Virus record (IMG/VR): IMGVR_UViG_3300033146_001182
Coordinates: 1 to 64,000 of that record
Length of the DNA: 64,000 nucleotides
DNA from: a virus
Reading direction: 5' to 3' (one strand)
Shown: in pieces, positions 42,085 through 49,061 of the stretch
Position numbering within the stretch: position 1 is the first letter of the stretch
Layout of the letters: every line of letters begins with the position of its first letter
Notes under the pieces: generated by a model
What the model was told of the DNA's origin: nothing
The model's input: only the letters and a program-made list of their open reading frames with translations
The model's database searches: none
Program-made: the position numbers and the translations under genes

Positions 42085-43194
42085 CTAATGAATAATTCTT
42101 ATATTAACAGGTTCTTCTTCAACAATTTCTTCCTCTGTCAAATCACAGATTGAATCATCGTTGTCATCGGTATCAATTTTAATATCAATACCATATGATA
42201 CTTGGTGATAACCTGTTTGTCCACCAGTACCACTTTCTTCATCTTCGGTTGTCCAATTTTCAACTTCATTTTTTGTTGTATCTTCAATGGACTCCCATTC
42301 TTCCTCTTCCCATTCCTCATCAGTCATGACCATAGTTTGTTCTTCTTCCATTTGTTGAAGAAGATGAAGTTCTTGGTCAGCAGTTCCATCTTCAATCAAT
42401 TCAGTAATATCATCATCTGAATAATATTTACTTAATGATGTACGAAGTTCTTTTTCCATTTTAGGAGTGTAATACAAACCTGTTACTGGATGAAGATGTC
42501 GTGTTACAACATCTTTTGAAATTGAAGAATCAATATCACTAAAATGATTAACATAAACAGGACGATTGGAATTGATTTTAGAAGTAAACTCTTTTTCAAA
42601 AGCATCTTCATCAAGAACTTTCTTATGTTTTACTGAAAAAGTCAAATCTTCAGCAAGAATATAAGAACCACAAAGGGTCTTCATTCTTACTTGTCCTTTA
42701 ATTGGTGAAGAAGGGTTAGTTGAAACTACAATTGAAACATCATGGTTTTGATTAATATAAGCATCATCAGTTCCACTAAAAAATGCTCCCATTGTATGGT
42801 GTGAATGGATAACACCAATGATTTTACGACCATCACTCCAACCATATTCAACATTATAAACATTAACTCCTGTTACTTCTTGACTATCAGGAATAATAAT
42901 ATCAGTTACCAGAACATGTTTTTGTTCATGATTAACTTCACCTTCCAGATAAGCCAACCATTCCAAAGTTGGGTAATAATCTTGAAGTTTTTTGATTTTC
43001 TCATCAGCCAAAACTTCAAATTCAACCTTATATTTAGGAACGGTCATATGACCACATGTTTTGATGATTTTAATACCAGCATCCCAACAAGTATTTGCTG
43101 CGGCAATTTGTTTGGCAAATGCCCCACCCTTATTATGTTTTTTAATAAGTGCGTCCATTTCCTCATTGGTCATTGGTTTCAAATGATTTTTCAT
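42085..43194 (-). CDS. JAB/JAMM (MPN+) metalloprotease with acidic C-terminal tail
   Basis: EW...IHSHHTMGAFFSGTD = E..HxH-x7-S-x2-D. Confidence 0.88.
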   Translation of the reverse strand: MKNHLKPMTNEEMDALIKKHNKGGAFAKQIAAANTCWDAGIKIIKTCGHMTVPKYKVEFEVLADEKIKKLQDYYPTLEWLAYLEGEVNHEQKHVLVTDIIIPDSQEVTGVNVYNVEYGWSDGRKIIGVIHSHHTMGAFFSGTDDAYINQNHDVSIVVSTNPSSPIKGQVRMKTLCGSYILAEDLTFSVKHKKVLDEDAFEKEFTSKINSNRPVYVNHFSDIDSSISKDVVTRHLHPVTGLYYTPKMEKELRTSLSKYYSDDDITELIEDGTADQELHLLQQMEEEQTMVMTDEEWEEEEWESIEDTTKNEVENWTTEDEESGTGGQTGYHQVSYGIDIKIDTDDNDDSICDLTEEEIVEEEPVNIRIIH

Positions 43195-43263: not shown

Positions 43264-43857
43264 TTAAACAGAATAGAAATCTTTCAAATGACAACCCATT
43301 TCACCACCTGAATATTTCATTACTTTTCCAACAACCAGTGCGGCAGCCATAATGGCAGGAACAGCCCAAGATGGGGTAACACGATAACCATCTTGTGTAT
43401 CACCAACATCCCAAGAAGCAACACGGTCATTGATAGACATACGTTCACCATCATAACCTGATTTTACATACTTAGCACCATTCTCATCTGCCATTCGTTG
43501 ATTTTCAAGTTGTGATTTATGGTTATCAGTACAATCAATAACCCAATCAACATTTTTTGGATAAGTATGGTCTTTCAGTGGAAATGGAAATGCCTTCACT
43601 TTTGTATCAGGACGAAGTTGTTTAATAACAGTTTTGACAATATCAGCTTTATTTTTACCGATAAAATCAGCTGTTACATCCAACCGATTAAGATTAGATT
43701 CTTCCAAAGTATCAGGGTCAAAAACATACAGTTCTTTGATACCAGACATTGCCAAAAGTTTAGCAACATGAAAACCAATTCCGCCAGCACCAACTACTAA
43801 TACTTTCAAATCAGTATTAATTCCTTCAATCAATTCTTGCCGATTGTAAATGGACAT
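43264..43857 (-). CDS. ThiF/MoeB/E1-like adenylyltransferase
   Basis: YNRQ, VVGAGGIG, DPDTLEESNLNR, GKNKA, IDCTDN. Confidence 0.92.
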   Translation of the reverse strand: MSIYNRQELIEGINTDLKVLVVGAGGIGFHVAKLLAMSGIKELYVFDPDTLEESNLNRLDVTADFIGKNKADIVKTVIKQLRPDTKVKAFPFPLKDHTYPKNVDWVIDCTDNHKSQLENQRMADENGAKYVKSGYDGERMSINDRVASWDVGDTQDGYRVTPSWAVPAIMAAALVVGKVMKYSGGEMGCHLKDFYSV

Positions 43858-43966: not shown

Positions 43967-44827
43967 TCAGGTTGACCAGACAGAACCAACATTATCTGAT
44001 ACATCTTGTGTGATACCAGACCGTTCATCTGCCCTTGAGACAGAATACTGGACATCTTCACCACGATTAAGAAGATGTTGTTGGAGGGTTGAAAGTCTAG
44101 GCAATCCTGTTGGTGTGGTAGTTCCTGGTGATGCTGAATTGACATTTTCCAAAACAACCAAGGCTTCACGACCAATTGCCAAAATATCATCAGGTGAAGA
44201 CCAAGTTTGTGGATGTCGCCAATCACCCCAACAATCAGAAGAACGACCCATTGCGTGATAATGTGAAAACTTATCTAATCCAATGGTTTTACGGACGATA
44301 ACTTCATTTACACGGTCATCTTCTGTTTTAATTTCAATAGTAACAGGTGAAATAAGACGTTTGGAGTATTTTGGTTCAATTGGACGACCATCAACATATT
44401 TTGGCCAGTATACACCTTGATACAACCAAACCATACGACCATTACCATTTGAAACAACAGACAAACCAGCTTTTGCGTGTTCACGAGTAATATTTGGCAT
44501 AATATTACTTGAGTTCAATCGTTCCTGTAATTCACGTTCTTTTTCTTCATAATCCATACGGTTTTGTTCAACCATATAAGACATTTCTGACATTTTTTCA
44601 TTCAGAACTGATTTGATTTGTTGAAGTTTTTCGGTAAGTTTAGCAGAATATTCTGCCCGAATATCGTCTTCTGGTAGAGAAAATTCCTCAGTAATTTCAA
44701 GTTTCACCACCCGTCCACCGATACGAACAGTCATTCCCTCAGATTTTACGTCATCAATTGAAACACTATCAAGAGTGTTATCAATAGAATCTTTAATATC
44801 TTCAACAACAGATGTATCCCAAGCCAT
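43967..44827 (-). CDS. coiled-coil + E2/UBC-like conjugating enzyme
   Basis: Sole Cys in HYH-x7-CWG (E2 HPN-x7-C spacing), followed by WSS...LENVNSASP; flanked by Ubl and E1. Confidence 0.65.
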   Translation of the reverse strand: MAWDTSVVEDIKDSIDNTLDSVSIDDVKSEGMTVRIGGRVVKLEITEEFSLPEDDIRAEYSAKLTEKLQQIKSVLNEKMSEMSYMVEQNRMDYEEKERELQERLNSSNIMPNITREHAKAGLSVVSNGNGRMVWLYQGVYWPKYVDGRPIEPKYSKRLISPVTIEIKTEDDRVNEVIVRKTIGLDKFSHYHAMGRSSDCWGDWRHPQTWSSPDDILAIGREALVVLENVNSASPGTTTPTGLPRLSTLQQHLLNRGEDVQYSVSRADERSGITQDVSDNVGSVWST

Positions 44828-44957: not shown

Positions 44958-45170
44958 CTAACCAGCCACTTCATAAGGCTTAATTTCCAGTGCCATGCCA
45001 CTTTCCATATTAGCTGGAGCAGTAGCAGGGTCAATTTCCGAACCATTCAGAATAACACGGAATTTCCCAAGTCCAGCATCTTTTGCGGCACTAATTACGG
45101 TATCTTTGAAGGAAGTTCCCTCAGTGATGGTAGAAGTAGAACCATTGATAGTCAGAGTTGCGTTTGCCAT
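44958..45170 (-). CDS. ubiquitin-like (beta-grasp) protein ending in Gly
   Basis: 70 aa; FRVILNG..I...MESGMALEIKPYEVAG-COOH; SD AGGAG. Confidence 0.75.
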   Translation of the reverse strand: MANATLTINGSTSTITEGTSFKDTVISAAKDAGLGKFRVILNGSEIDPATAPANMESGMALEIKPYEVAG

Positions 45171-45791: not shown

Positions 45792-46529
45792 TTATTCTTC
45801 TAATTTAGATAATAGGTAATACTTTTCACTACTGTCATTATTTTCAAATAATACCATACCAGCACCTTGTGCGTCAACCCAAGTAAACTTTGCAGTAAAA
45901 TTATTTAGGTTTTCATTGATACATTGTAATACAGCATTAAAGTTCTTAAAATCAAAACAAATATCAATATCATCATGATCAATTTCACCCAATTCAAAAT
46001 TGATTCCATTGGCAAACCGATTGGTTCTATCAGTTGTTTCCACACTAAACTTTTTATCTTTTACTGTAAAATAAACTTTTTCAAACTTACCAGCAACTTT
46101 ACGGATTTTATCAAAATATTCACCAACTTCTGGTGTCAATTCAAGTTCATAAAATGCAGGAATATTTGGTTCTTGTCCAGTGAATGTAGTGACAAATGAA
46201 GACATACAAAAATGAAGATTTGTTCTATGCCTACCATCCTTCAATGTTAATTTATCATCTGTTACTATAGCATTTACTGTTTCACTATCAATGAGATTAA
46301 GATACGGTTTAACCTTCATATTAGGTTCATCAAAATTAAGTTCAATTTCACCTTGAATTTCATTGATGGCTTCGTTTTTTAAGTCAAGATAAACAACAAC
46401 TGTATTATTGGCACTCCTCATTTTTGTTGTAATTTTCTCATTATCAGCTTTTAACTGAACAGATGGAATTACATAATTAAGAGTTGCTTTCTTAATAACT
46501 TCCTGTAATTGTTCTACATTTATAATCAT
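45792..46529 (-). CDS. 45: sliding clamp (T4 gp45-like)
   Basis: 245 aa, clamp-like alpha/beta pattern, near clamp loader genes. Confidence 0.7.
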   Translation of the reverse strand: MIINVEQLQEVIKKATLNYVIPSVQLKADNEKITTKMRSANNTVVVYLDLKNEAINEIQGEIELNFDEPNMKVKPYLNLIDSETVNAIVTDDKLTLKDGRHRTNLHFCMSSFVTTFTGQEPNIPAFYELELTPEVGEYFDKIRKVAGKFEKVYFTVKDKKFSVETTDRTNRFANGINFELGEIDHDDIDICFDFKNFNAVLQCINENLNNFTAKFTWVDAQGAGMVLFENNDSSEKYYLLSKLEE

Positions 46530-47847: not shown

Positions 47848-48147
47848 TTATTCTATCTCCATAATGTTTTCAAATATATGCCAAATTAAAGAATTACTAT
47901 TCATTGACACTGTTCCAATAAATCTTAATGTATGTTCATAATTCATAGGATTACCAGTTCCAAATACTCTAATTCGTCTTGGAACTAAAGGATTCTCATC
48001 ATTCAATTTTACCCACATATATAATGAATCAATCATTTCTCCATATGTTGGTGGTTGAGACATTACACTAAGGATTTCTGCATCTTTCGGTAGGTTAATT
48101 ATTTGAAAATCAGTTACTTCCAGTTTATATTTATATATTTTTTCCAT
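47848..48147 (-). CDS. hypothetical phage protein
   Basis: IYKY...GTG...FIGTV...WHIFE pattern. Confidence 0.65.
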   Translation of the reverse strand: MEKIYKYKLEVTDFQIINLPKDAEILSVMSQPPTYGEMIDSLYMWVKLNDENPLVPRRIRVFGTGNPMNYEHTLRFIGTVSMNSNSLIWHIFENIMEIE

Positions 48148-49061
48148 TATACTACACCTTTCATTATCATATTAAAATACATTGTCATAAAATTAATTTC
48201 TCTATTTCCAACAATATTATCTCTATAATCATGTTCACCCAATAGTAAGATTGCCTCACCATCTTTTTTGAATACTGAATCTTCTGCCATAAGAGTTGTA
48301 TAGATATGTGAATATAATCCAGCATAATCAATTTGATGTGATTTAAGAATTGTTCTTACTGCTTCAGGATCACCATTTTTCATGGCTTCTAAAATCTCAC
48401 CATAAGTCTCATCATATGCAGTAATTTTAATATTATTAACCAATTCTCCATTAATAACATTCTCTTTTAATACTACCAATGTCTTTCTAATATCAGGTTT
48501 TTGTTTCCAGATTGACTTAACTAAATCAATTACAACTTTTTTGTCATATTTAACACCCTCTTTATCAAGAATATACCAACATTTCTTGACAACATCAATT
48601 GCAGGTGGATTAGATAGTTCAATAACTCTACATCTTGACATTAATTCTGGAATAATTTTATGTACATAGTTACAACAAAAAATAAATCTTGTTACACTTT
48701 GAACTGATTCCATTAAATCACGAAGCATTGCCTGTGCATTGGTAGATAGATAATCAGCCTCATTAAGATAAACAATTTTAATTCCACCAAAACCAGCACT
48801 TGTGGCAAAGGATTTAACTTTATCTCTGATTGCATCAATACCTGTTTCATCTGAACAGTTCAATTTCAAAATATCAGGATTTTTTGTGTGTTTCAAAATG
48901 TCAACAAATGTTCCTTTACCAGTACCAGAAGGACCGTATAGGATAATATTTGGTAATTCTTCTAATGCTGCTTGTAATTTTGGTTTAACTTCATCATCAA
49001 GAATCATTTCATCAAAAGTTTTAGGACTATACTTAAACTCATATAAGTCATTCAAATTCAT
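48147..49061 (-). CDS. 44: clamp loader large subunit (T4 gp44-like AAA+)
   Basis: KYSPKTF, GPSGTGKG, NEADYLS, SRC. Confidence 0.9.
   Translation of the reverse strand: MNLNDLYEFKYSPKTFDEMILDDEVKPKLQAALEELPNIILYGPSGTGKGTFVDILKHTKNPDILKLNCSDETGIDAIRDKVKSFATSAGFGGIKIVYLNEADYLSTNAQAMLRDLMESVQSVTRFIFCCNYVHKIIPELMSRCRVIELSNPPAIDVVKKCWYILDKEGVKYDKKVVIDLVKSIWKQKPDIRKTLVVLKENVINGELVNNIKITAYDETYGEILEAMKNGDPEAVRTILKSHQIDYAGLYSHIYTTLMAEDSVFKKDGEAILLLGEHDYRDNIVGNREINFMTMYFNMIMKGVV

Follow-up and report, generated by a model that had tools for sequence, protein, structure and literature searches.

The window analysed in this study comprises 64,000 nucleotides, namely positions 1 to 64,000 of the IMG/VR virus record IMGVR_UViG_3300033146_001182, which is 88,775 bp long and carries T4-like replication genes. 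Four genes lie there in the same direction on the minus strand and encode, in this order, a ubiquitin-like protein (Ubl), a protein resembling conjugating enzymes (E2-like protein), an activating enzyme (E1) of the ThiF type and a JAB/JAMM peptidase (Table 1). The E1 is probably the activating enzyme of this phage-encoded Ubl conjugation cassette and consists of a bare ThiF-type adenylation domain. It has lost both zinc-binding CxxC pairs and the crossover-loop cysteine, and its adenylation machinery otherwise appears to be intact, judging from its motifs. The gene order and orientation were kept in 44 of 51 related viral loci; the seven exceptions comprise four loci that are cut at their 5' side and three with mobile-element genes upstream.

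Table 1 Features of the cassette and its surroundings, in window coordinates
Feature	Position	Strand	Basis
Ubl, 70 amino acids (aa), C-terminus ...YEVAG-stop	44958-45170	-	open reading frame (ORF)
E2-like protein, 286 aa, N-terminal long helix and UBC-like domain (109-252); putative E2	43967-44827	-	model, motif
H189-Y-H191-x7-C199-W-G of the E2-like protein	44225-44263	-	alignment
Minimal E1, ThiF-type adenylation domain only, 197 aa, ATG start	43264-43857	-	Pfam ThiF, AlphaFold2 model
R6-Q7 of the E1	43837-43842	-	invariant 62/62
GAGGIG nucleotide-binding loop, G23-G28	43774-43791	-	G23, G25, G26, G28 invariant 62/62
NLNR motif, N55-R58, adenylation residues	43684-43695	-	invariant 62/62
K70 of the E1	43648-43650	-	invariant 62/62
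DCTD motif, D108-D111 with C109, Mg/ATP-site strand	43525-43536	-	shared with Salmonella ThiF
Crossover loop, residues 144-164, DRVASWDVGDTQDGYRVTPSW, Cys-free, no CxxC	43366-43428	-	sequence
Tyr158 codon, proposed Ubl acceptor in place of a catalytic Cys	43384-43386	-	conservation
C189 codon (MGCHL)	43291-43293	-	Cys in 52/120 homologues
JAB/JAMM peptidase, 369 aa, H130-S-H-x7-S-x2-D and acidic tail	42085-43194	-	Pfam Prok-JAB, 1.4e-8
Sliding clamp, PHROG 223	45792-46529		family match
304-aa ORF, RFC/clamp-loader-like (GPSGTGKG)	48147-49061		reading of the sequence alone

The E1 was found to match the Pfam family ThiF (PF00899) with an E-value of 1.2e-27 and 97.1 bits, well past the cut-off of 28.1. 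Its AlphaFold2 model (predicted local distance difference test, pLDDT, 91.7; predicted template modelling score, pTM, 0.89) comprises one domain with no inserted domain. When this model was compared by VIA-align over about 190 residues, Z-scores of 22.8 with the SUMO E1 SAE2, 22.6 with both ThiF (1zud) and MoeB (1jwa), and 22.1 with UBA5 (6h78) were obtained, and UBA5 was also the top Foldseek match (TMq 0.81-0.82, E about 1e-12). The residues of the ATP site, including R6, Q7, G23, G25, G26, G28, D47, D49, N55, N57, R58, K70, D108, T110 and D111, are invariant in 62 of 62 aligned rows, and the motifs to which they belong align with their counterparts in Acinetobacter MoeB (hhalign). No curated NCBIfam model reached its cut-off, the best scoring 64.9 bits against 159 and TIGR02356 scoring 64.4 against 275. 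The PADLOC E1-E2 models describe Cap2 of CBASS, which is an E2-E1 fusion, and match only the Rossmann part of the phage protein (query residues 3-122, within profiles of 426-778 positions). Neither PADLOC nor NCBIfam could assign the E1, the E2-like protein or the Ubl to a specific family.

With regard to the cysteine residues, the original prediction held that the E1 contains only two, in DCTD and in MGCHL, and that it has neither a cysteine nor a CxxC pair in the crossover loop, nor the zinc sites. All of this was borne out. The two residues are C109 and C189, the first CxxC pair of Acinetobacter MoeB (C178/C181) aligns on S148-V151 by hhalign, and the second (C252/C255) falls beyond the C-terminus of the phage protein. 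Close homologues were collected with a search window of 108-345 aa; the 120 that were retained share 49-90% identity with the E1, are 177-220 aa long as listed, and all passed a filter of 170-225 aa. Their alignment for cysteine conservation, a comparison proposed with the original prediction, revealed a single conserved cysteine, C109 (118 of 120), and none at all in columns 134-164, column 165 being occupied by cysteine in 10 of the 120.

Neither of the two thiols is convincing as a thioester site. The DCTD motif is shared by Salmonella ThiF, whose C125 aligns at C109, and C109 is replaced by T, A, S, F, I or V in 21 of the 146 rows of the wider family alignment described below; for these reasons C109 is not a thioester candidate. 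Acinetobacter MoeB has D-G-C-D at this position, its cysteine falling on T110. The C-terminal C189, which had been put forward as an alternative acceptor, was rejected, being a cysteine in fewer than half of the close homologues (Table 1). With no canonical crossover-loop cysteine and no zinc site, the E1 needs a non-canonical mechanism, and on this point we agree with the original prediction.

The crossover loop does contain an invariant tyrosine, on which the original prediction did not remark. Residue Y158 is a tyrosine in all 120 close homologues, in which W149, G157, S163 and P167 are likewise invariant and D156 is conserved in 93%. Residues 150-159, which include D156-G157-Y158, are the sole stretch of the model with a pLDDT below 50, a pattern that a mobile crossover loop would give. 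At the nucleotide level, 49 distinct gene copies use both tyrosine codons, TAT (35) and TAC (14). When the family profile was run against 1.84 billion cluster representatives, 195 clusters (50% identity) were retrieved at E <=1e-30; the best 150 of these representatives were aligned with the window protein, giving 151 rows, of which 146 cover the loop and five do not. Tyrosine occupies the Y158 column in 137 of the 146 rows, and the remaining nine have a cysteine within one residue, either one residue earlier (seven rows, xCGVTIPSW) or inserted just after (two rows). A tyrosine or a cysteine is therefore found at this spot in 146 of 146 rows. For comparison, the loop cysteine C195 of MoeB aligns two residues past Y158, and the E1s of the phage JAB-E1 pairs at loci L058-L075 have PC[TS], one column past the tyrosine.

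The nine cysteine forms constitute a single clade (SH-like support 0.865), and a parsimony count over the 147 rows with less than 30% gaps required one change. In a tree rooted on MoeB as the sole outgroup (ThiF, BubCD and the E1s of L061, L068, L070 and L074 having been dropped for more than 35% gaps), this clade is nested among tyrosine lineages, with support of 0.87 and 0.93 at the nearest nodes; as basal support is only 0.0-0.18, we claim no direction for the switch. Like the window E1, members of this sister clade (including P0314 and P0335) are about 200 aa long, lack CxxC pairs and have homologous Ubl and E2-like neighbours; they differ in having the loop xCGVTIPSW rather than DGYxxxPSW and are 30-36% identical to the window E1. 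All six metagenome loci found with CGVTIPSW E1s (L158, L159 and L161-L164) carry the homologous Ubl and E2-like genes, and the JAB gene is also present in L158, L159, L161 and L163, L162 and L164 being contigs of about 2 kb. Their E2-like proteins retain [HQ]YH...C[WY]G and LENIN..S. Members of the clade come from metagenome contigs alone, none having been found in IMG/VR viral contigs. Given that the cysteine-type E1s sit with homologous Ubl, E2-like and JAB genes, we are dealing with one cassette family in two versions, with a tyrosine loop and with a cysteine loop. The cysteine-loop E1s also possess invariant residues of their own that are missing in the tyrosine clade, namely a histidine in the strand T-N-H-I-T-V that immediately precedes the loop and H52 in E-x-H-N-L-N-R; these histidines could be partners that tune the cysteine.

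An E1 without a loop cysteine is not without precedent. In the bacterial Bub operons, formerly 6E or DUF6527 operons, the E1s BubCD (Type I) and BubBD (Type II) are described as lacking a crossover-loop cysteine, the sole invariant loop residue being a tyrosine (Y370 and Y342, respectively), and conjugate formation is abolished by Y370F and Y342F (Ye, Gong, Chambers and Corbett, bioRxiv 10.1101/2024.11.21.623953, in the parts of the preprint drawn on here and below). The mechanism that the original prediction regarded as unusual is thus still non-canonical, but less unusual than it seemed, since loop-tyrosine E1s were already described in 2024. According to the same source, the Bub E2 nucleophile is a serine and a DUF6527 protease is present in all Bub operons.

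The phage tyrosine was compared with that of BubCD at the level of individual residues. A search of 401 Enterobacteriaceae genomes for DUF6527 gave seven with a match, and six regions were examined. Beside a DUF6527 gene, we found a 456-aa JAB-E1 protein that has E28, H91, H93, D104, R227 and Y370 as they are numbered in the Bub preprint. The phage E1 profile aligned with the E1 domain of this BubCD orthologue by hhalign with Prob 97%, E 5.6e-11 and 25% identity, and in both global and local mode Y370 falls on Y158, G369 on G157 and the downstream P-S on P162-S163. The loop tyrosine of a BubBD-like protein likewise falls on Y158. The two kinds of E1 have in common a homodimer-type ThiF adenylation domain, a disordered, mobile and cysteine-free loop with an invariant tyrosine at the aligned position, and partner Ubl, E2 (in the phage, E2-like) and JAB components. 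They also differ. The phage E1 stands alone with 197 aa, whereas BubCD is fused to JAB and BubBD to E2; the phage E2-like protein has an invariant cysteine and HxH, in contrast to the serine of Bub (plus His/Asp or Lys/His); and Bub is encoded in bacterial defence islands, the cassette described here by a phage. A search for DUF6527/BubE (PF20137) that admitted E-values up to 1 found no match in the 88,775-bp record, which is estimated to be 35% complete, and the cassette genes gave none either. Given its stand-alone nature, the cysteine of its E2-like partner and this absence of DUF6527, we regard the phage E1 as an enzyme that would work like a Bub E1 while lying outside the Bub family.

Two observations on Bub operons were made in the course of these searches. 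At L328:7801-8775 (Enterobacteriaceae genome G036), a BubCD-like ORF beside a DUF6527 match breaks off partway through the E1 domain, at a length of 325 aa, and this operon may be broken. In the control genome of Caulobacter vibrioides, DUF6527 (BubE) scored above its cut-off, so that this model organism may carry a Bub-type operon.

The E2-like protein has a conserved site that could receive the Ubl. Residues F187, H189, Y190, H191, C199, W200 and G201 are invariant in 72 of 72 rows, and canonical E2s have the spacing HPN-x7-C. The model of the protein (pLDDT 79) shows a long helix (residues 53-107) followed by an alpha/beta domain, for which the top rows of the wide VIA comparison were E2s: UbcH10 (Z 6.4 over 118 aa), Pex4p (Z 6.4) and 1yrv (Z 6.3), over 118-124 aa and tied with coiled-coil rows. 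The Atlas provided leads only, to Prok-E2_D and Prok-E2_B. The 286-aa protein is treated here as a probable E2. In P0202, a 250-aa protein on a 948-bp contig, a radical-SAM Pfam domain is combined with a part that matches a quarter of the E2-like protein at 84% identity; this could represent a gene fusion, an adjacent gene or an artefact of assembly.

The Ubl homologues terminate in AG or, in many cases, in AG followed by one to eight further residues (for instance AGNVNP, AGRANR, AGAIILCQ), with a few ending in AA; the additional residues past AG fit processing by the JAB peptidase. Most of these homologues (L002-L051) carry an acidic N-terminal extension of 15-30 residues, which the 70-aa Ubl of the window does not have. 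The JAB protein of the window has a strongly acidic, low-complexity C-terminal tail of about 130 residues (EEWEEEEWE..., DDNDD...), and tail length varies greatly, the JAB ORFs of relatives being about 230-650 aa long. It gave no matches among PDB sequences at E up to 10, and scored 25 bits against PRTRC_A, under the cut-off of 101.8.

We consider the best reading of these data, and one that we hold to be somewhat favoured overall, to be that the E1 adenylates the Ubl, takes it over as an ester on Tyr158 and passes it to Cys199 of the E2-like protein. For the chemical steps, the homodimeric state of the E1 and the charging of the E2, we infer the following course. The E1 would bind ATP-Mg and the Ubl and adenylate the C-terminal Gly70 of the latter. 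The flexible crossover loop would then bring the hydroxyl of Tyr158 up to the acyl-adenylate; the resulting Ubl~Tyr would be an aryl ester, as proposed for the Bub E1s, and the loop would deliver the Ubl to Cys199, where a thioester would arise. From there the Ubl would be transferred onto a target amine, and the JAB peptidase would trim the C-terminally extended Ubl precursors of relatives, remove conjugates, or both. An ester of the phenyl type is a better acyl donor than a serine ester, which makes the handover from the tyrosine to a thiol plausible.

Several points weigh against a tyrosine ester. The case for it is wholly computational; a complex prediction with two copies each of the E1, the Ubl and ATP, together with the E2-like domain (residues 105-262), scored 0.00 with no interface and weighs neither way. 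The switch between tyrosine and cysteine is a single evolutionary event with no repeats. The phage E1 is no nearer to BubCD than to MoeB (E 1.6e-18, 29% identity), so that the tyrosine may be convergent, and the hhalign posterior around Y158 and Y370 is moderate (digits of about 6 at G-Y). The BubCD loop holds four tyrosines, and the alignment of a tyrosine on a tyrosine is therefore not very improbable by itself. The assignment of the E2 is only moderately supported, with the Z-scores of 6.3-6.4 given above and weak Foldseek matches to E2/UEV proteins (E 0.2-0.8), and no Pfam E2 family was found in any of the 72 members, the window protein having no Pfam match. The E1 and JAB genes stand without neighbouring Ubl and E2-like genes at three loci, L018, L019 and L030, although one of these records has the pair elsewhere and the other two are probably fragments. 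Finally, in the Bub system itself, direct trapping of a Ubl~Tyr adduct was not achieved, and an ATP-dependent BubA-BubCD band that the authors regard as off-pathway survives Y370F (10.1101/2024.11.21.623953). Taken together, these two findings leave room for a tyrosine that acts non-covalently.

Such a role is central to the strongest of the alternatives, which the original prediction had already raised: the E1 would only adenylate, and Cys199 of the E2-like protein would attack the Ubl-AMP directly, with Tyr158 docking or gating the E2 or ordering the loop. This explanation still stands, and it agrees with an E1 that has no suitable cysteine as well as with the untrapped tyrosine ester of Bub. 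MccB, PaaA and TcdA, ThiF-family adenylases for which no enzyme-bound acyl intermediate is known, are among the structural matches of the phage E1. Against it stands the tyrosine or adjacent cysteine in every one of the 146 rows. Exchange specifically with cysteine, the canonical nucleophile, is not expected of a docking residue. We therefore consider direct attack on the adenylate unlikely, though worth serious attention, and the ester on Tyr158, a third option absent from the original prediction, to be better supported by the cysteine of the sister clade and by Y370 of BubCD.

A role as a sulfur carrier is improbable. In this case, the E1 would be an enzyme of the MoeB/ThiF kind that adenylates the Ubl for conversion to a thiocarboxylate, which would serve a thio-modification specific to the phage, and the 286-aa protein would not be an E2. 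The top NCBIfam and sequence affinities of the E1 are indeed with ThiF and MoeB, and the loop cysteine of MoeB is reportedly dispensable. Moreover, operons that combine JAB with ThiS/MoaD sulfur transfer appear among those described by Iyer et al. 2006 (PMC1779556, as far as that source was drawn on). Against this, no NCBIfam ThiF/MoeB cut-off is reached and the zinc sites are missing. No rhodanese or desulfurase was seen among the adjacent genes (clamp, clamp loader and small ORFs), the part of the window beyond these not having been family-scanned. The cassette partner is a protein with an invariant cysteine and E2-like fold matches, and the invariant loop tyrosine or cysteine would be left without a role.

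Even less probable is Ser163 as the acyl acceptor. This residue lies in P-S-W just before a helix, at the C-terminal end of the crossover loop and near the site of Cys250 in UBA5; it shares the invariance of Tyr158 in the close homologues, and the P-S of BubCD is aligned there. In the wider family, however, 26 of the 146 rows have V, T, A, Q, M or I instead, the distant viral relatives L053-L055 have A or N there, keeping G-Y and with it the tyrosine but having lost P-S-W, and Ser163 is situated within the well-ordered part of the model. A thioester on C109 or C189, which have in their favour only that they are the sole thiols of the E1, is hardly credible for the reasons given above.

The phage E1 can be set beside several known systems, each of which it resembles in part. 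With UBA5 (6h78 and 6h77; VIA Z 22.0-22.1 over 190-195 residues) it would share a one-domain adenylating architecture in which the nucleophile sits directly on the crossover loop. UBA5 has C-terminal extensions that bind the Ubl and the E2, and there are none on the phage E1. Thioester-forming E1s such as UBA5, ATG7 and UBA1 carry their catalytic cysteine in the loop or in an inserted domain, and the phage E1 has neither. With ThiF and MoeB (1zud and 1jwa), it has in common the fold, the ATP motifs and a Ubl that ends in glycine, the DCTD motif being identical in Salmonella ThiF. It differs from them in the loss of both CxxC zinc pairs, the missed NCBIfam cut-offs and the E2-like partner, and the loop cysteines of ThiF (C184) and MoeB (C187 and C195) are replaced by the nearby tyrosine. 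The anti-phage Bil system (BilABCD) is made up of the same four parts, Ubl, E2, JAB and E1. In contrast to the one-domain phage E1, which has no catalytic cysteine, BilD is described as a multi-domain IAD-AAD-CYS E1 with a catalytic cysteine domain, and the nucleophile of UBA5 is cited as Cys250, at the end of the loop (both in the portions used of 10.1101/2024.11.21.623953).

The cassette gave zero megablast matches among GenBank phages, and tblastn of the E1 against phages returned just 11 distant matches, all below 38% identity, several of which are bacterial records filed as phage. A search of sequencing runs listed no RNA run and gave DNA runs with at most 0.46 of the sampled words. A very distant version of the cassette was found at L054:3808-6273, where the E1 is 27% identical, the Ubl ends in ...DQASSFKA, a 282-aa protein has F-H-x6-C-T-G-G, and JAB is present; the E1 loop, QAGYRTSSANA, retains the tyrosine without P-S-W. 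Another phage cassette, at L061:2500-5627 and generally at L058-L075, comprises a 69-aa Ubl-like ORF, a 466-aa protein with HPH-x6-C (an E2-like motif), a JAB and a 236-aa E1. The loop of the L061-type E1 is APCT, with a canonical cysteine, and its JAB gene lies 5' of the E1, unlike the order in the window.

In the record that holds L018, the Ubl/E2-like pair lies about 19 kb away from the E1 and JAB genes. At L019:1369-3340, directly 5' of these genes and thus at the site of Ubl and E2-like genes in relatives, a serine-recombinase-like ORF, a TnpB/IS605-OrfB-like ORF and an HNH-like ORF were read from the sequence. The cassette seems here to have been split by mobile elements.

The precedent for the chemistry is the Bub preprint of 2024. 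Literature searches, which did not extend to supplementary files such as Table S1 of Bub, found no paper on a phage-encoded tyrosine-type E1, and within the same searches the phage setting, the minimal stand-alone E1, the cysteine E2 partner and the natural tyrosine/cysteine pair were not found in print. The nearest mention concerns ThiF/E1-like genes in an Asgard-archaeal virus (10.1101/2021.07.29.454249, in the part of that paper drawn on here). New in this study are the count of 146 tyrosine or cysteine residues in 146 rows, the cysteine-loop sister clade in the same cassette and the residue-level match with BubCD. Beyond these observations, we put forward tentatively, as a possibility that the data leave in near balance, that a widespread lineage of large T4-like phages uses a hybrid Ubl cascade in which a tyrosyl (aryl) ester on a 197-aa E1 feeds an ordinary cysteine E2, with a swap of tyrosine and cysteine as nucleophiles within one cassette family.

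Should Tyr158 be the acyl acceptor, oxyester E1 chemistry, so far described in a single Bub preprint, would also occur in viruses and in a cascade that proceeds via a cysteine E2. In that case, the size of the family, with its 195 clusters, implies that this chemistry is common rather than exceptional. The 197-aa protein, devoid of zinc, would be the smallest E1 scaffold for mechanistic and structural work. The cysteine-loop sister clade provides natural material for exchanging tyrosine and cysteine and for asking what a tyrosine ester buys, such as protection from oxidation or from host attack on thiols, or an altered reactivity of the leaving group. The cassette also raises the question of which targets are tagged by phages that carry their own Ubl. 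Under the tentative reading of a hybrid cascade, tyrosine-based E1 chemistry would be a recurrent, possibly independently evolved, viral solution to protein tagging and not an oddity of Bub.

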